DNA of 64,000 nt from Mytilus edulis (lineage: Eukaryota). The notes beneath the pieces are model-generated. The model was given only the letters and a program-made list of their open reading frames with translations. It did not search any database and was not told the origin of the DNA. The position numbers and the translations under genes were made by a program. Within the stretch, counting starts at the first letter, position 1; each line of letters begins with the position of its first letter. Shown piece by piece: positions 7,133 to 62,869 of the stretch. The stretch spans positions 31,682,001 through 31,746,000 of the forward strand of contig NC_092350.1 of the NCBI RefSeq assembly GCF_963676685.1. The letters are read 5' to 3'.

Positions 7133-7863
7133 ATGTTTGATACTGGATGTGTAGTGTCTGTAAAGGTCAACGGAGAAGATAAGAAAACATTGAGTGGGGT
7201 ACTCATTGATACAAAGTCAGGACTTGTTCTGACACATGGTACTTTAGTCTCATCTTTGTTAACGGATCAGCAGATAAATTCATTACAGAACAAAGGAATT
7301 TTACAGAACAGTTTTCATCATTGGGATGCAGAAGTCTGTTTGCAAAGGACCAATAAACAAGACTCAAATAATAATTTGAGATCTATATTAAATAGTTCTG
7401 ACATTGCTACCCAGACAGAAAGTGAAACATGGCAAAAGAACTTGTACTCTGAGTATTCAGCCAATGTTCAGGCTATATTCTCTTTGAAAAAATTACAGAA
7501 TGTTGTTTCTTTTTTATTGCCTGAAAATAAATGGGAATTTGTGGAAGATTTTTCTTCACAAGAGACACCAGATGACCAGTCTAAATTTTATGCAATGCTA
7601 TCCTGTTTTATAATATTGAAATTGAACAACTGGAAGAGCTATAATAACAATATTTCTGTTCTTGCATATGATCAACTTGACAAGGGAGATAATTTAGAAA
7701 TAGAGGCCACACCTTTTGGTGGTTTGTGCCCTGAGATTTTCCTGAATTCCAGAAGTACTGGTGTGTTGAGTAACAAGGCTGGTGGGATATTGTTAATGAC
7801 TGATGCTAGATGTGTGCCAGGTTCAGAAGGTGGTCCTGTGTTTTGTAGAAAAGGTCATCACAG
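7133..7863 (+). CDS. TYSND1: TYSND1 coding exon 1 (N-terminal protease-like domain)
   Basis: Acceptor ttttcag at 7090, ATG 7133, SGVLID..GLVLTHG, ATPFGGLCPEIFLNSRSTGVLSN, TDARCVPGSEGG; donor GT at 7864. Confidence 0.93.
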
Positions 7864-10800
7864 GTTATAATTCAAATATTTTTGCATGCATATAATTTTG
7901 CGATTTTTGAGAAAAGGACAAAATTGTTAGATGTATTATTACAATTTCAAGATATTATGCAAACTCTTAATTTCATCAGATCAGAATTAGATTCTTATTA
8001 TTGCTATTATCAACTAGTCACATTCGCAATTTAAAGACAGTCATCCAAATAATTTTTAAATTTACAGTACATGTATATAGAAAATATAATACTATTGTAA
8101 TAAATGCTTGATATTAAAAATTTCATTAACATTGGTTCAAAAGCCAAAAAGCCATAAAACAACAAGTAATTAATAAGAAAATTCAATAATCTATTGAAAA
8201 AAAAAGAGAAAAAAAAGTTCATTATACCTCAAATTATTTCTGGAGTAATTGTCCTTGAATGATGATTTTAACATTTTTTATCTGTGTGAGTATCGTTAAA
8301 TTTTAAATATAATTTGATAGAGATAAAAAGTAAGCAGAAAAAAATATAGCAATACAAGCTCAACAAAAAAGATTTAAGCACTGAAATCAGTTACTAGTCT
8401 ATGATGTTTAGATGTGCCCATTGTTGAAGACACATTTTGTTTCAGGTCAGCAACACAGGCTATTTCTTTAGAGCAACTTATTTATATTTTACTATAATAG
8501 TAGATAGTGAATTTATTCCAAAATGAAAGATTTTTTATCAGCCTTTCAAAGATATACTTATATTAATTAGCTTATATTTTTTTTAGGTACCTTGTTGGTT
8601 TAATTATAACTTCACTTTGCTGGAAGTCAAATGAATGGGTTGGTTTGTCTATGGCTTGTGCAATAACAGATGTTTTAAAACGTGTAAAACAGATATGCAG
8701 AGTGGAAATAACCCCTATAGAAAACATATTTAGAGGTACATACTTTACATGGCAGATTGATCCAATTTTTGACTCAAGTGGATTGAGAATTTTCAAGAAA
8801 TCCACTGAATTTTAAAAAAATCATTGGGCGAACATATCTTTGATATATTAGCCAAGTGGATTCAGAGTTGACCTTTTGTTCATTTATCCAAACTTTAACT
8901 TTTTTCAAAGCCTCAATTAGAAGTGGACATTGTCTAGTGAGTCCTGCTAAATTAGATCACTGTCATTTATTTGTAGAACTGCATTAAGTAAAAAAATATT
9001 CTCTAACTATTGTTGGGAATGAATTTGAGATACGCTAGCAGTGTATAAAGAAGGAATGGGGTCCGACAGTATTCTTATATTTGTGATATTAAAAATTAAT
9101 AAAATCATTACCAATTATGATTTCTATTTCCTTGTTGTATGATATTTTTTTATATAGAAAGCAAGTTGAATTGTGTGATAAACTCATCACTAATGATATT
9201 TGGTAAACAGAAAGTCAATAAGCACTGGATGTGAAATTCCATCATTGGTAATAAGATCTACATTTGAAATCCTAATATAAAAAAGAACAGCAATCTTGGT
9301 TTACATTGAATTTAGTATACTATTCTTAGTTCACATAGATACAATTGGTTTGTACTGGTATGATCAGAAAAAAGGTGAATATCTTTATCAAAGATGCAAA
9401 AGTATCATATCATGCATTGTCATATTTTCTGTATCTATACTGTAAAAAAGTTATAGAAAGTTGGCAGAGAAACAAAAATAATCACTTAGTGTCATCCTTT
9501 AATTATATTCACATACTGAGAATTGAATAAAAATGTTTGATCTTTGTAACATACATTTACATGTCAATTTTTTGAATTTATATTTTCAGCTAGAAATAAC
9601 TTGAGCCAGTTGATAGAGAGCATTCCATTGATTGTAGTAGGCAGTAATTGGGGATCTGGTGTTGTAATTGGCCAGGAGGATGGATATCACATCCTTTTAA
9701 CTTGTAGCCATGTAGTTAAAGAGTCTGATTATAATACAGGTATACCTTGACTAGGGTCAGAAATCTGGCATTGTGATTGGTCAGGATGATGGACATTCCA
9801 TCCTTTTAACTTGTAGCCATGTAGTTAAAGAGTCTGATTATAATACAGGTATACCTTGACTAGGGGCAGAAATCTGGCATTGTGATTGGTCAGGATGGTG
9901 GACATTCCATCCTTTTAACTTGTAGCCATGTAGTTAAAGAGTCTGGTTATAATACAGGTATACCTTGACTAGGGGCAGAAATCTGGCATTGTGATTGGTC
10001 AGGATGGTGGACATTCCATCCTTTTAACTTGTAGCCATGTAGTTAAAGAGTCTGGTTATAATACAGGTATACCTTTACTAGGGGCAGAAATCTTGCATTG
10101 TGATTGGTCAGGATGGTGGACATTCCATCCTTTAAACTTGTAGCCATGTAGTTAAAGAGTCTGATTATAAAACAGGTATACCTTGACTAGGGTCAGAAAT
10201 CTGGCATTGTGATTGGTCAGGATGATGGACATTCCATCCTTTTAACTTGTAACCATGTAGTTAAAGAGTCTGATTATAATACAGGTATACCTTAACTAAA
10301 GTCAGAGATTGGTAAATAGTGTCAAGAAGGAACTTAAAAATGACCTTTTAGAAGAGAATATTTGTGTTTATTTAGATTATTGAACTTGCATTGTCCAAGA
10401 AAAATAAGAACACTAAGCTAGAGGGCATTACAGAAATAATTGTTTGGAAGCTGTTAATTTGAATCATATTGCCAACAAATGAAAATAACACTATAAAAAT
10501 TTCTGTGATCAAAGTGCTTTTATAAATTTCCCTTCAATAGCACTGCTCAAACCCAAGCATTTTAAAGCTAAGGATGTATACCAGTAGATACTAGAACACA
10601 TGAGGAGCTATGTACCATAACTACACCAAACAAATAATAGCTTAATTCATATGAGGGCAACAAAAGTGTGTTAAAATTCTTTTCTTGTTTTTTTTTTGCC
10701 ACATAATAAAAAAACTAATATACAAGAAAAACCTCTTATTTATTTAAAAAAAAAATTTATTATGGTAAATATAATATTTTTTCCTACACTCTTTTCCAGT

Positions 10801-13800
10801 GAAACTTAAGTTTACAGATCAACAGAAGATACATAAAGGAAAGGTGATATACAAGACACCTGTAGATGAACAGTTTGATATAGCAGTATTGAGCTGTCCA
10901 CTCAACTCAGGAAAATATATCCAGATGTCACCAAAACCAGTAGCACAAGGTTATTATTATGTTACCCTCCAACAAAAAAAAACCAGCAACAAAAAAGACA
11001 AAACGTAACAAAAACAATAAAAAGGCATACACCACCCCCCACTCCTTTTGTACATATGTTAAAGAATGATATAACGGAAGTTTTCTTTGGTCAGTATCTA
11101 TCTACCACAACAAATCTACCATTTACCTTATTATGGATATAAATGAAAGGAGATGTGACGGCAAGTAATGACACTTAAAACCTTTAAAGGTTAAAACAAA
11201 GATGCATCAGCAAAAGAATAGTGTGGATGCCATTTTGTTAAGCGCCAAAAATTTCTAGAAAGTTGAGGAAAGGTTAACAGAGATTACCGTACCTAAGATT
11301 TGCCATGGCAGTAAAAGACAGATATATAAATAAAGATAGCGGTAATGAGTTTCTGACTTAGGACCCCCACTTTACCATATGTCAGGGTTTAACTCGATTC
11401 AAGAAATCAATCCCCCATCTTTTTGTTACTATCAAAGAAATAACAAAAGGAGAAACAAAGAAGTATGTAAAATAAAAATTGTTTTAGCTCTGCACTTGCA
11501 GGTGCAAAGTGAGGATATGACACAATCAATGATTTTATTATCAAACCCTTTTTTTGTCCTTAGCTTACTTGTATGGGGGGAGTTTAAAATATTGTTTAGA
11601 TAAAAAATTTAGACTAGAAAGATGTATACTTGTATACTAATAATGTTTGTTTCTAGGAGATAAGGTGTATGTTATTGGACATGCTGTTTTTGGAGAAGAA
11701 AAGAATTTAGAACCAACAATAACATCCGGTATTATATCTAAAGTTTTGTGTATCAACAACATTCCTGTTTTGATTCAGGTATTACTATAAGATTAATAGA
11801 AATATTTTACTTTTAAAGTGTTCTTTAAAGAACTTCTACTTTTTTTTTTCACCACTAAAATATTTTTGATTACTGTAAATTCAGAAATTATTGCGAGGTT
11901 TTTATTATTGCAAAAAATGTGACAAAGTTGTAAACGCAATATTTTAAACTCACATTTTGAAATATTTTATATGAATTAAAAAGGATTTTTCTCAAAATTG
12001 TAAAAATTTATAAATCACATTCAAGTCTAAAATGACAAAATCGCAATAATAAATGCACTCAATAATTTCTGAATTTACAGTAAAGAAAATGTTTTTATAC
12101 CTATCTGACTAGCAGAGTATCAAATGAAATATTTCACAACAATATTATTATTATTTAGATAAATGTTGTATTAAGAGTTAATTCAGTTAGGTACATGTAT
12201 TATGCTTAGAAAGTATCTAACCTCCTCATCTTTATACCCTATGCTGTAAAGTAGAGGTAGTTTACCAATAACTTTATTGTGTGAATGATTCAGGCTCTTA
12301 ATGGCCTCTTGTTTTGTAAGTTTATATATTTGTTCCTTACAAGCTCAAATTTAAGTCAGGATTGCAAACTCTTTTTTAATCACAAATACTTATGTTTTCA
12401 GACAACATGTGCAGTTCATGCTGGTGCCAGTGGTGGAGCAATAGTTAATCAATATGGACAGCTTGTTGGTATACCTGTCAGCAATGCAAAGTAAGTACTA
12501 AATCTTACCAGTTTAATTTAAACATATTTAGAGATTGGGAAACAAGTTATTGCAACTTATATTAATCCCTTTTCACTTTATGGGTGACTTGTAGCGGCAA
12601 TAGCCTGCTCTTTTCGGAAATCTGTAAGGGTGTCTTTTACGTCCATAGATATCACTCTCTCTTAACAGTAACTGGTAGTGCCACTAATCAAGTGTTTTGT
12701 ATTTTGTCTTTGTTTGCAAAGTGAATCCCCTCAAATGAGAAGGGCTAAAATACCACTCTTCTTCTTTTTTAGCTCACCTGGCCCGAAGGGCCAAGTGAGC
12801 TTTTCCCATCACTTGGCGTCCGTCGTCCGTCGTCGTCGTCGTTAACTTTTACAAAAATCTTCTCCTCTGAAACTACTAGGCCAAATTAAACCACACTTGG
12901 CCACAATCATCATTGGGGTATCTAGTTTAAAAAATGTGTGGCGTGACCCGGCCAAACAACCAAGATGGCCGCCATTGCTAAAAATAGAACATAGGGGTAA
13001 AATGCAGTTTTTGGCTTATAACTCAAAAACCAAAGCATTTAGAGCAAATCTGACAGGGGTAAAATTGTTTATCAGGTCAAGATCTTTCTGCCCTCAAATT
13101 TTCAGATGAATCCGACAAACCGTTGTTGGGTTGCTGCCCCTGAATTGGGAATTTTAGGGAATTTTTGCTGTTTTTGGTTATTATCTTGAATATTATTATA
13201 GATAGAGATAAACTGTAAACAGCAATAATGTTCAGCAAAGTTAGATATACAAATAAGTCAACGTGACCAAAATGGTCAGTTGACCCCTTTAGGAGTTATT
13301 GACCTTTATAGTCAATTTTTGACCATTTTTCGTAAATCTTAGAAATCTTTTACAAAAATATTCTCCTCTGAAACTATTGGGCCAAATTAATCCAAACTTG
13401 GCCACAATCATCTTTGGGGTATCTAGTTTAAAAAATGTGTGGCGTGACCAGGCCAACCAACCAAGATGGCCGCCATGGCTAAAAATAGAACATGGGGGTA
13501 AAATGCAGTTTTTGGCTTATAACTCAAAAACCAAAGCATTTAGAGCAAATCTGACACGGGATAAAAGTGTTTATCAGGTCAAGATCTATTTGTCCTGAAA
13601 TTTTCAGATGAATCGGACAACCTGTTGTTGGGTTGCTGCCCCTGAATTGGTATTTTTAAGGAAATTTTGCTGTTTTTGGTTATCATCTTGAATATTATTA
13701 TACATAGGGCCAACATTAAAAATATCTTTGTTTCCCCTCACCCGACTGAGGTTGTTAGGGTATGGGTAGGTAGGTAGGCAAATTATTTTATTTTATTCCT

Positions 13801-16800
13801 TGATATGGTTTTCTATATTGAATTTGTAAAAAATTCAACAGGTAAGGCTTAAGTCAAGAAAAGTGGGGTATTCCCTGTTTTCTAATTCAGTGTACACCCC
13901 AGTTTTCTGGTGTTAAAAAAAACCCCTAGTATACAGGGACCTCCTTATTTTCCTTTTCATTCAATGTAATGAAATTACCAAAAGAGCACATTCTACTTGT
14001 GATAACAATGCTTAATGATAGCAAGTGTTCTTTTAGTTACAAAATCAAGCTAATTTCAAGTCTAATTTGATGCATAACTCACAACAAAACAATTCCTTTG
14101 TTCACCAATTCATACCTTGATCATCAATTATGAGATGACAAAAAGATACATGTATGTTTTAAATCACTTGGGAATTAAAATTCAATGAATACAAATTTTC
14201 AATAGAAGTGAACATAATTTAGTTATGTTCAGTTATACCTGGATCATGCAGCTTGGTCAATTGATTCTTAAACAAATATTTGTATGTTTTTTCGAGTTCT
14301 AGAAGAAACAAGGCTTCACTTTATATTCATGTTTTGTATTTCCTAAAATACTTTTAATAAGTATTTACGAATTCTATTGATGCAGTTATAACATTAAAAC
14401 GTGCCCTTTTGTAATTTTCATGCCATAAATTGAAAAAGGAAATCCCATTTAAACTGGGATTTTTTTTACACCAGAAAACAGGGACGTTCCCTGAAAGCAG
14501 GGAATACATGTATCCCACATTCCCTGACTTGTGCCCAACCTGTTCAAAGACAAAGTAGATAAATTTTAAAGCACGATTCAGACCATTTTTACTCAAAGTC
14601 TTTAAGATTCTATCCTTCAAAAATGAACAGAGGTTAGACACAAAGCAAATCAAGATGCACTCAGAAAGTTGAAAGATGCTTCAGGTTTTTTTTTATTTTC
14701 AAAAAAGATCACCCTTGCAAACATTTTGTTTATTTCCTTGATTCTGAATCATGTAGGCGCTTCCTTGCAAAAATGCCTTGATTTAAAACGCTCATTGACT
14801 ACAGCATCGGAAAGGTATCACCAAAAACCAACGCTCGTTGACTACAGCATCGGAAAGGTAACACCAATAACCAACATAGAAAAAAAAAAAAAATAGTGGA
14901 CAAGAATGGCCAATAAAAAATTTCGGGTCGCTGTGATTTTACCGAGTCGGTCGTGTGAGGGGAAACAAACAATATTTTATTTTTGGCCTAGAGATAAACT
15001 GTAAACAGCAATAATGTTCAGCAAAGTAAGATTTACAAATACGTCAACATGAACGAAATGGTCAGTTGACCCCTTTAGGAGTTATTGCCCTTTATAGTCA
15101 AATTTTAACCATTTTTCGTAAATTTTAGTAATCTTTTTCAAAAATCTTCTCCTCTGAAACTACTGGGCTAAATTAATACAAACTTGGCCACAATCATCAT
15201 TTTTTGTTATTGTCTTGAATATTATTATAGATAGTGATAAACTGTAAACAGCAATAATGTTCAGCAAAACAAGATCTACAAATAAGTTTTTCATAACCAA
15301 AATAGTCTATTAACCCCTTAAGGAGTTATTGCCCTTTATAGTAATTAATTTTTAGCATTTTTCATAAATTTTTAGAAAATATTTTCCTCTGTAATTACTG
15401 GGCCAAGTTCATTATAGATAGAGATAATTGTAGCAACAAGAATGTTCAGTAAAGTAAATTCTATAAACACATCACCATCACCTAAACACAATTATGTCAT
15501 GAATTTATCTGTGTCCATTGTTTAATATGCACATAGACCAAGGTGAGCGACACAGGCTCTTGAGAGCCTCCAGTTATGGTAATTACTGATTTTCTTTTTT
15601 CTTACAAGTGTTATCAGCTTTAAGAAGAGGAAATGTTTTTTTTATTAAGGGTATATGATACAGAAGAGATCCCTTGTTGACTTTTCTTTGATTTTTTTTT
15701 GTACAAAAAGTAAATTTATATACAAAGGAAAAATATACCTTCATTAAAATTTTGAGGTATTAGGATTTGATTTTGAACTGTTTATGATACATACACATTT
15801 GCATATTTCAATACCTAGCTATAAATTGGCAAAAAAAAGAGATATATTTTCCCTATTTGTTTTGGTAAACATTATAAACAACATCATTGCTTTCCTTTGA
15901 GACTGCTTTCAAATTTATGCAGCACATTTGATGACATCAGAGTGTTTTCTGTAGGCTCTGTAAGCAAAGATTGTCAAAACTTCAAAATAAAATATCCACA
16001 AAAACCAAACTCCTCAATGCACGAAAATTTATACACTCGAAAATAAAAAAATCGAATGAATGTTTATTTCTTGATAAAAACTCTTTCCTTAATAAAACTG
16101 TACTTTTCTTTAAACATGATTTCAATTTATTCATTGTTGCAAGAATTCATAGATGATATTACTATTTTTACAGAGATACAGAATCAAAAGCTTCATACCC
16201 ACATATCAACATGTGTATTCCCATAGCAACAGTCGCACCAATAATCCAAGAGTACATGGCCTCCAAAGGTAATGAATTTAAGCTAAAATAAATAATTCAC
16301 AAAAATTTGTAGTTTTTGAAAAAAGACTCAAATCTCACAGCAGAAATAGGGATTGTCAGTTTTTGTTGGTGGGGAAAGCCATAGCGCTGAAGAGGAACAC
16401 TGATCTTCAAAGAAAAATTAAGATAAAATATAATTTAATTTCAATTGGCACAACATATGGTTCAGGTAGAATTTCTGAGATATTCTTGTAACCAAAAGAT
16501 TAGAAAGCCAAAAATATGAATTGGAGAACCCTAAAATTCCTAAATAGAACAGCAGAATCTGTCATTTGCCTGTTAATGGGAGATGCATCTCTGGCTTCAG
16601 CAGAAAACAAAATATAATGAACTGAACATTTTTGGACAAAACTAATACATTGTAACTTGAATAATAAAAAAAAAGATGGCTTCTTATTGGATAGGTATCC
16701 AGCAACATACTAACACAATTGAAGTACAAAAATCCATATTACAATTCTCCATGGACACAACATGTGTTTCTAGAATTATTTTTATTAGGTACACTTAACA

Positions 16801-18117
16801 AAACAAAAATTGGAATTCCTCAATTATGAAATACATTTTTGTACTGGAAAGTGCAAAAAAAAACTTTGCTGGGAGTTCAAATGTTCCTTTAGATTTCATA
16901 AGTTCTTGATTTTCAAAATATTATAATATGTTTTGTATATATACCTCAGATCATCTTTAACCTGCAAGAAAGAGTAAAACACAACTTTTACTGACTTTGA
17001 TAGGAATGTTAATTTTTCTTTCTTTCAGATGCAAGCATTCTAGAAAATCTTACTATAAAACATAAACATATTAAAAGGCTGTGGATGCTGGACTCAATAC
17101 ATACAGGTAAATATTAAAAAAACCAAACACACACTTTATTATACACCCCCTTTAAAAAAAGTGGGGGTATACTGTTTTACATCTGTCTGTCTATCCATCC
17201 ATCAGTCAATCCGTCCCATGAATATTTTTCATTGCATTTTTCTCAGGAACTACACTACAAGGAATTCTGAAATTTGGTTTTAGGGTTTATATAAGTCAGC
17301 TAAACTGTGTGATGTGTTTTCAGATTCATCATGCAACTTCCTGTTTACCAAACACTTGTATCATTTTACACATGATAGCCAAGTAGAATATTTTCATCAA
17401 GTTTTTTCAGGAACTACCACTTTATTATACTGTTTTACCTCTGTCTGTCTATCCATCCATCAGTCAATCTGTCCCATGAATATTTTTCATTGCATTTTTC
17501 TCAGGAACTACAATACAAGGATTTCTGAAATTTGGCGGCGGGGGTATCATCAATAGCTCACAGTTTCACTTGTTTATCATCTTCTAAAAAGTAAGATACA
17601 TGAAGGCAAATGAAATAAATATAGTCTGTTGTAAGAGAAATAGTTTCCCTTTGCATGCGGGAGAAACATTTGAGCCAATTGGTAGTGTGAAAAGACCAAG
17701 CCTTTTGGATATGCATAGTAACCTTCTAAACCAAAAATATGTCTTAACCAAACAAATTATTCAGTACCCCTCTTTTACTTTAAAACCCCATTTAGTTAGG
17801 CAATGAAGCAAGGCTTGAGTGCAACTTTAAACCCTTAGCATTTAGTAATGAAACTGAGCATGATTATCTTTGTCTTTTATTAGAAAACTGTAAGTTGGAA
17901 GCCAATGTGAAATAAACCCCAGAAAATATAAAAAAAAGTTTTTGCTGCTTCAAGATTATCTGCAATGCAGATGTTGTTTAACAGTATACATAATTATAAT
18001 GGTATTGGTAAAACTTAGCATCTTTCTTGCTAGTATTAAGTATGATAATACATGATAGTGTAATCTGCACAATAACAGCTTTAATATTTTTTTTATATTT
18101 CAGCCAGTAAGTTATAG
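7133..18117 (+). CDS. TYSND1: Peroxisomal leader peptide-processing protease (trypsin domain-containing 1); 9 coding exons, about 525 aa
   Basis: Exons 7133-7863, 8587-8735, 9590-9739, 10800-10949, 11657-11778, 12402-12490, 16174-16268, 17029-17106 and 18104-18117 join through GT-AG introns with matching phases (1578 nt = 526 codons). TYSND1 motifs: TDARCVPGSEGG, LCWKSNEWVG, WGSGVV...LTCSHVV (His), FDIAV (Asp), TTCAVHAGASGG (Ser), YPHINMCIP, C-terminal SKL. Confidence 0.95.
8587..8735 (+). CDS. TYSND1: TYSND1 coding exon 2
   Basis: YLVGLIITSLCWKSNEWVGLSMAC...; tttag/gt boundaries, phase 2 to 1. Confidence 0.9.
9590..9739 (+). CDS. TYSND1: TYSND1 coding exon 3 (catalytic His)
   Basis: ...VGSNWGSGVVIGQEDGYHILLTCSHVVKESDYNT; ttttcag acceptor, CAG|GTATAC donor. 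Confidence 0.92.
9652..10305 (+). repeat. Tandem array of six 109-bp units; the first overlaps the 3' part of TYSND1 exon 3 and its donor
   Basis: Units start at 9652, 9761, 9870, 9979, 10088 and 10197; each contains ...ACTTGTA(G/A)CCATGTAGTTAAAGAG...ACAG|GTATACC. Confidence 0.97.
10800..10949 (+). CDS. TYSND1: TYSND1 coding exon 4 (catalytic Asp)
   Basis: GKVIYKTPVDEQFDIAVL; ttttccag acceptor, AAG|GTTATT donor. Confidence 0.9.
11657..11778 (+). CDS. TYSND1: TYSND1 coding exon 5
   Basis: GDKVYVIGHAVFGEEKNLEPTITSGIISKV...PVLIQ; phase 1 to 0. Confidence 0.92.
11873..12080. mobile_element. Tc1/mariner-type MITE
   Basis: TIR CTGTAAATTCAGAAATTATTG, TA flanks on both sides. Confidence 0.8.
12402..12490 (+). 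CDS. TYSND1: TYSND1 coding exon 6 (catalytic Ser)
   Basis: TTCAVHAGASGGAIVNQYGQLVGIPVSNA; donor GTAAGT. Confidence 0.93.
12767..15575 (-). mobile_element. HINE-like element, family B (~502-bp core repeats), containing a nested MITE
   Basis: Reverse complement of the 28854-31142 element: terminal hairpin AGCTCACCTGGCCCGAAGGGCCAAGTGAGCT, (CGT)n, core repeats, GAGCCTC.AGTT end. Confidence 0.85.
13708..14988. mobile_element. PIF/Harbinger-type non-autonomous element nested in the HINE
   Basis: GGCCAA..TTTGTTTCCCCTCAC TIRs; TAG TSD at 13705-13707 and 14989-14991 splits the host motif ATAGAGATAAACT. Confidence 0.85.
16174..16268 (+). CDS. TYSND1: TYSND1 coding exon 7
   Basis: DTESKASYPHINMCIPIATVAPIIQEY; phase 2 to 1. 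Confidence 0.9.
17029..17106 (+). CDS. TYSND1: TYSND1 coding exon 8
   Basis: DASILENLTIKHKHIKRLWMLDSIHT; strong polypyrimidine acceptor, CAG|GTAAAT donor. Confidence 0.87.
17135..17575 (-). mobile_element. HINE-like element, a third family
   Basis: Terminal hairpin ATACACCCCC...GGGGGTATAC, (TCTG/TCCA)n tract, internal duplication, CTTGTT end. Confidence 0.6.
18104..18117 (+). CDS. TYSND1: TYSND1 terminal coding exon encoding A-S-K-L-stop (PTS1)
   Basis: ttttttttatatttcag|CC AGT AAG TTA TAG; phase 1 matches exon 8 and gives the canonical SKL end of TYSND1. Confidence 0.88.
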
Positions 18118-24199: not shown

Positions 24200-38464
<14,265 letters not shown>

Positions 38465-62290: not shown

Positions 62291-62502
62291 TCAGGTGAAA
62301 GTCTTTGGTCAAGGTAGTTTTTGATGAAGTTAAAGTCCAATCACCTTGAAACTTAGTACACATGTTCCCTATGAAATGGTCTTTCTATTGTAAATGCCAA
62401 ATTAAAATTTTGACCCCAATTCCAAGGTCCACTGAACATAGAAAATGATAACGCAAGTGGGGCATCCTTGTACAAAAAAATGAAATATGGACACATTCTT
62501 GT
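62291..62502 (-). mobile_element. HINE-like family A fragment
   Basis: Core GGTCAAGGTAGTTTTTGATGAAG...GTGGGGCATCC...ACATTCTTG. Confidence 0.7.
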
Positions 62503-62715: not shown

Positions 62716-62869
62716 CCTATTGACATCTTACTTTATTTTTCTTGTATCTTCTTAACAAGATATTACAGACATGTCAGTTGTAAATATCAGCCTATTGACA
62801 TCTTACTTTATTTTTCTTGTATCTTTTTAACAAGATATTACAGACATGTCAGTTGTAAATATCAGCCTA
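62716..62869 (+). repeat. Near-perfect tandem duplication, 2 x 75 bp
   Basis: Units 62716-62790 and 62791-62865 differ by one base. Confidence 0.9.

Follow-up and report, generated by a model that had tools for sequence, protein, structure and literature searches.

A tandem array that carries the end of a protease gene's active-site exon, together with its splice donor, several times over into the following intron raises two questions: whether the additional donors influence splicing, and whether the intronic copies and the coding exon exchange sequence. The window analysed here is the whole stretch of 64,000 nt from Mytilus edulis (contig NC_092350.1, positions 31,682,001 to 31,746,000 of the forward strand), and the gene in question was annotated as follows:

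TYSND1 coding span, 7133–18117, + strand: nine exons, 525 aa, C-terminal SKL, an open frame with GT-AG introns.
TYSND1 exons, + strand: 7133–7863, 8587–8735, 9590–9739, 10800–10949, 11657–11778, 12402–12490, 16174–16268, 17029–17106 and 18104–18117.
Exon 3, 9590–9739, + strand: holds His334 (codon 9709–9711), the predicted catalytic His; both of its junctions are present in the X20 RNA contig.
Exon 4, 10800–10949, + strand: joined to 9739 in the X20 contig, skipping 1060 nt (GT..AG).

The encoded protein was identical to P0009, an M. edulis record that bears the name peroxisomal leader peptide-processing protease-like; this record may derive from the same DNA as the window and is not independent support. 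A Trypsin_2 domain was present in the orthologue P0001. By sequence, the host gene is identified as TYSND1 by its Trypsin_2 domain, His-Asp-Ser triad and C-terminal PTS1, with predicted protease activity. The Trypsin_2 domain, the triad positions and the C-terminal SKL are common to the window protein and the peroxisomal TYSND1/Deg15 serine proteases of the Deg-HtrA type (PMC3473262); no difference at the protein level emerged from the part of that source consulted, the window array being intronic. His334 lies inside the duplicated part, aligned with the TxxHV His of DegQ/DegP chains, and was kept in 89 of the 90 other orthologues (P0002 and P0015–P0103; 29 HtrA-like hits and 47 more fell outside this set). 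Across the nine full-length Mytilus proteins (P0001, P0003–P0009 and P0013), TYSND1 alleles were highly divergent, standing 20–27 residues from the window protein and forming a mosaic exon by exon; P0007 and P0009, both named M. edulis, differed at 20/525 aligned residues, likewise as a mosaic by exon.

Tandem Repeats Finder (TRF) placed an array of period 109 at 9654–10298 (5.9 copies, 95% matches, score 1143). Six 109-bp copies straddle the boundary of exon 3 and intron 3, the first being the exon copy and the other five intronic:

Left-edge tract, 9654–9689, + strand: contains all eight fixed differences between exon and copies (9660, 9661, 9666, 9672, 9678, 9685, 9688 and 9689).
Run of 67 nt identical between exon copy and copy 1, 9690–9756, + strand: crosses the used donor.
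Used donor and first 21-nt spacer, 9740–9760, + strand: in-frame TGA at 9748–9750 upon donor read-through.
Intronic copy 1, 9761–9869, + strand: its 28 codons correspond to residues 316–343 of P0007, with identical translation.
Intronic copies 2 and 3, 9870–10087, + strand: separated by a single difference; each would encode D324G and D340G.
Intronic copy 4, 10088–10196, + strand: decayed; its translation would have an internal stop as well as G317C, D324G and N342K.
Last copy, 10197–10305, + strand: would read S333N; its spacer differs from the first spacer at three sites (right edge).

The six CAG/GTATAC donors (intron-side G at 9740, 9849, 9958, 10067, 10176 and 10285) have identical 9-mers, and each 21-nt spacer begins with GT and ends with AG. 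TRF and the donor positions thus agreed with the original prediction of six units and five extra donors, and the TGA expected on read-through of the first donor was found in frame. Several details of that prediction required correction. Homology starts at 9654, the two opening letters of each unit as first drawn being part of the junction, and the near-identity described for about 56 nt of the distal exon is real, with its extent now set at 9690–9756 (50 exon nt plus 17 intron nt). All eight proximal changes named were present; 3/8 of them are synonymous, no more than chance would give (P 0.33–0.56). Lengths of 88 and 109 nt are indeed not multiples of 3, but three copies together (327 nt) are, and the stop comes first.

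A search of the genome with the 109-bp unit matched no locus besides the TYSND1 array, which is a lower bound, and no look-alike windows were found in the other genomes compared. Rfam gave no matches at E up to 1, and the metagenome search for exon 3 relatives returned one weak 17-residue match among 599 candidate stretches, which was left unused. The copies were also considered as tandem cassettes or mutually exclusive exons. This was rejected: the spacer AG is not preceded by a pyrimidine tract, unlike all eight real TYSND1 acceptors, and the copies are 88 nt long, do not include the Trp-Gly of WGSG and have a stop in copy 4. Among shorter proteins covering exon 3, the candidate for an array-derived or truncated isoform proved to be a 43-aa genomic frame of another organism. 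Features resembling bacterial promoters or terminators were set aside as irrelevant to an animal intron, short hairpins recurring because the unit recurs.

Other repeats were noted elsewhere in the window: a 75-bp unit at 62716–62869 (98% alike over 2.1 copies and including a pyrimidine-rich stretch that closes with AAG), dimers of a related 169–170 bp unit at 1777–2109 and 33418–33730 with a similar piece near 62340–62470, and internally repeated pieces at 12760–13720 and 14990–15560 that, judged by eye, appear to be an interspersed repeat in intron 6.

Eight of 24 sequencing runs were examined, namely DNA runs X1, X2, X5 and X7 (4/14 DNA-like runs, from four studies and under three species labels) and RNA runs X20–X23; contig results refer to the pieces listed (32 of 120) and the variant rows listed. 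Signs of the array were seen in all four independent DNA runs and under all three species labels. A 76-nt piece in X5 (record 22) crossed the junction from spacer to copy with 48 and 28 nt on its two sides, zero differences and 4.5 times the flank depth. Three array pieces were listed for X7, one of which spanned a whole unit at 3.9 times the flank depth, while a copy-type piece (record 30) showed two differences over 117 nt; X7 also has unit variants absent from the window; contigs collapse repeats, and depth gives no copy number. Array bins in X1 reached a depth of 576–623 versus 169 (~3-fold excess), and those in X2 199–261 versus about 55–107, contig depth again not being equivalent to copy number. 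Contigs of X2 do not cover the 5' part of exon 3, and none of the four array pieces listed reaches 31 letters to each side of a junction. That the array is an assembly artefact, as might be argued from the fact that no listed contig spans it whole, is very improbable: the intronic copies differ by 1–8 letters from one another (and by 10–13 from the exon copy), junction-crossing pieces in X5 and X7 lie at 2–4.5 times the flank depth, and X1 has its 3-fold excess. The artefact reading is largely refuted, and presence of the array in other mussels is supported.

The eight exon-versus-copy differences fall into two sets. At 9660, 9661, 9666 and 9672, it is the copies that differ from the Val-type exon. 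At 9678, 9685, 9688 and 9689, it is the window exon that is derived (E323, Y326 and H327), the copy state D323, H326 and S327 being found in 8/9 full-length Mytilus proteins; relative to these, four nonsynonymous changes are packed into 12 nt of the window allele (9678–9689; D323E, H326Y and S327H). RNA runs X20–X22 read the same D323/H326/S327 state as the copies wherever the sites were covered. The E-Y-H tract of the window is not an assembly error, as record 21 of X5 (9644–9708) matches it with one difference. A search for a local template for either substitution cluster gave nothing above chance, the best 11-mer lying 40 kb away. The common allele at 9678–9689 forms a 6-bp hairpin.

Val318 was present in 8/9 Mytilus proteins, three other species included, and Ile318 in one (P0007, M. 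edulis), whose residues were identical to those of copy 1 at 28/28 positions. Ile-type exons were not confined to that record. In X1, record 1 (9399–9702), whose depth of 169 is that of both haplotypes together, carries the letters of the copies at exon positions 9660, 9661 and 9666 and is free of listed differences from the window over 9399–9659. Downstream, four pieces of one X1 haplotype are identical to the window, and the other haplotype has the P0007-type exon 4 changes K353T and I360L. Judging from seven differences and a contig end at 9672+30, C appears to be retained at 9672 in the X1 exon, in contrast to the T of the window copies, and assembly breaks suggest the same letter in one X7 unit type. 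The exons of X5 and X7 were Val-type, no other letter being listed at 9660, 9661 and 9666, and the arrays beside them were copy-type. Mussel exons come in three states: Val combined with D-H-S, Val combined with the E-Y-H of the window, and the Ile type of the copies. Copies of the Ile type adjoin Val-type exons in the window and in two DNA runs (X5 and X7), and Ile-type exons occur in X1 and P0007, so that exon and array are found in both matched and mismatched combinations.

The suggestion that the copies record an older allele of the exon was thus half right: at E323, Y326 and H327 they keep the state of 8/9 Mytilus proteins, from which the window exon has departed, but at V318I their state is a derived one, which some exons continue to carry as a segregating variant (P0007 and X1). 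Since Ile318 is found in 19/90 other orthologues and residues 323–327 lie in a gapped, variable loop, the effects of these changes on the enzyme are probably mild. Three of the four edge differences were synonymous, versus none of six variants within the array (Fisher P 0.033), one of the latter being a stop. Two of the six array-private variants equal exon residues of other species (D324G in P0003 and P0005; G317C in P0001; P 0.03–0.07, post hoc), a resemblance that may be taken as a hint only. Copy 4 would read Cys (at 10094) in place of Gly317, for which M. coruscus P0001 also has Cys and 88/90 other orthologues have Gly.

The first unit spans an exon-intron boundary confirmed by the RNA contig, and its donor is repeated in the intron, which places the TYSND1 array in a described class, the exon-intron boundary minisatellites (human F7 type, or amphioxus mirages). 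The human arrays comprise a 37-bp VNTR in F7 IVS7, a 100-bp repeat in LMNB2, an 81-bp repeat in PDGF, and those of CBS IVS13 and the interferon-inducible gene 6-16 (Borensztajn et al. 2006, PMC1557585). According to the part of that account consulted, only the first donor is used in F7, LMNB2 and PDGF, while in CBS and 6-16 two later donors are used as well. The mussel array resembles these in that its first unit spans the exon end and identical donors recur in the intron, and its unit size is near that of LMNB2; the RNA seen here uses the first donor, as in F7, LMNB2 and PDGF.

The original prediction had been that decoy donors tune productive splicing. The long-read RNA contig from X20 joins 8735 to 9590 and 9739 to 10800, i.e. 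the first donor was used in one of one contig (the same contig may underlie P0013 and was counted once). Raw RNA came from X21–X23, a single study, of which about 6% of each run was sampled and 45 reads aligned; the depth is low, and decay would hide aberrant forms. At this depth, none of the 45 reads lay in copies 2–4 (depth 0 over 9928–10179), the bin sums (192, 64 and 9 letters) were accounted for without any read on the first spacer, and no read was listed across the joint of exons 3 and 4. A few raw reads were placed on copy 1 and, to judge from bin depths, ended at ~9845, as expected of spliced reads of the common D-H-S allele. Reads of X22 at about 10195–10330 were examined as a sign of donor use and rejected, being one unspliced fragment that covers the last copy together with its flank.

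If any of the five later donors is used, translation meets TGA at codon 347, before Asp370 and Ser444 are reached; the resulting transcripts would encode a product without these two residues and are predicted targets of nonsense-mediated decay. A model in which later donors are used and copy number tunes the TYSND1 level through such decay could draw on this early stop, on the identity of all six donor 9-mers, on the later donors used in CBS and 6-16 (PMC1557585, in the part consulted), and on the persistence of the array under three species labels. Repeat length can shift splicing in humans, where it is associated with splicing quantity across individuals (splicing-associated tandem repeats, spl-TR; PMC10078293). 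Set against the empty copies 2–4, the first spacer without reads and the copy 1 reads that stop where spliced common-allele reads would, we consider it improbable. In these thin RNA data, the array is likely passive for splicing, with minor use of later donors possible. The mapping of RNA junctions to the six donors, which had been proposed as a check, agreed with use of the first donor as far as the X20 contig and the empty copies 2–4 go; the check would itself mislead, because common-allele reads fit copy 1 better than the window exon, map there, and would be miscalled as decoy donor use.

Homogenisation of the array with the coding exon, which had also been predicted, was supported, the unit middle being shared and both edges diverged. 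With the E-Y-H sites set aside, 7/8 differences between the exon and the last copy fell in the first 19 or last 12 nt, leaving 1/8 for the 76 nt in the middle of the 107 (P 0.0006, region chosen post hoc). This distribution is the one expected of unequal exchange in a tandem array and suggests that the inside of the array evolves in concert with its edges excluded. We regard it as probable that the array is a passive 109-bp exon-intron boundary minisatellite that swaps short tracts with its exon. It may have begun with one old tandem duplication of 9654–9762, amplified by unequal exchange, which would hold exon and copies alike in the middle of the unit while sparing both edges. Homogenisation would persist and include the 3' part of the exon; an exchange reaching the left edge would likely have written the Ile318 of the copies into the exon of some haplotypes, and E-Y-H would have arisen in an exon allele after the founding of the array. 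The direction of exchange between exon and copies is inferred.

Three observations run counter to such exchange. The X1 exon is apparently not a full copy of the window units, given its C at 9672; repeat homology reaches only 6 nt to the left of 9660; and the synonymous shares of 3/4 at the edge and 0/6 in the array also fit founding from a working Ile allele, although the exon may just as well be where the synonymous edge changes arose. An array founded on an existing Ile-type allele would merely record it, the copies never having written into the exon; ordinary recombination between alleles would later have placed the array beside Val-type exons, with the window tract 9660–9689 coming from another allele. 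Besides the mostly synonymous edge differences, this account is favoured by both X1 haplotypes sharing the Ile exon and the upstream flank of the window, by the E-Y-H tract of X5 seeming to lie next to a different upstream flank (records 20 and 21, unphased), and by the exon-by-exon mosaic of Mytilus alleles. On the other hand, it requires three changes clustered in 7 nt just inside what would later become the repeat's edge, and at least two Val-type alleles (E-Y-H in the window and X5, another in X7) would each need a crossover of their own; it also has to contend with Val in 8/9 Mytilus proteins, three other species included; we consider it rather unlikely. Founding and exchange alike leave the array without a function.

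Amphioxus mirages provide a parallel to the excluded edges. In the Adh3 and globin genes of amphioxus, with 3–6 units of about 150 bp in BflGb6, splicing is undisturbed, concerted evolution excludes the array edges, and array length is polymorphic (Ebner et al. 2010, PMC3087553, in the part consulted). Tandem exon-boundary copies in a highly polymorphic marine invertebrate, and the exclusion of edges, are common to both. In the mussel, by contrast, the amino-acid state of the copies (Ile318) is also found in the exon of some haplotypes, a case with no counterpart among the mirages in the part of PMC3087553 consulted. The mussel unit further differs from that of F7, which holds 4 exon bases, in being ~80% coding and holding the predicted catalytic His, and its copies match another exon allele; exchange with the exon is absent from the account of PMC1557585, as far as the part consulted goes. 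A literature search found nothing on TYSND1 in Mytilus and, with most subscription journals outside its reach, nothing on a boundary minisatellite converting its own exon.

Taken as a whole, the array is real and of a known kind, and a role in splicing is unlikely; the architecture being already known, the array alone matters little. What deserves attention is the likely exchange of alleles, seen in a specific residue change for which both matched and mismatched haplotypes exist. Because the alleles of exon and copies can be distinguished at individual sites in different mussels, conversion of a coding exon by the boundary repeat in its own intron becomes open to testing. More tentatively, the intronic copies might act as a lasting store of the active-site exon from which amino-acid changes return to the protein, supplying variants repeatedly. 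V318I would then have come from the array, D324G (copies 2–4; exons of P0003 and P0005) may have done so too, and the stop in copy 4 would put a null allele one exchange away. If this proved true, intron-to-exon conversion could be a general and unrecognised source of coding polymorphism in mussels.
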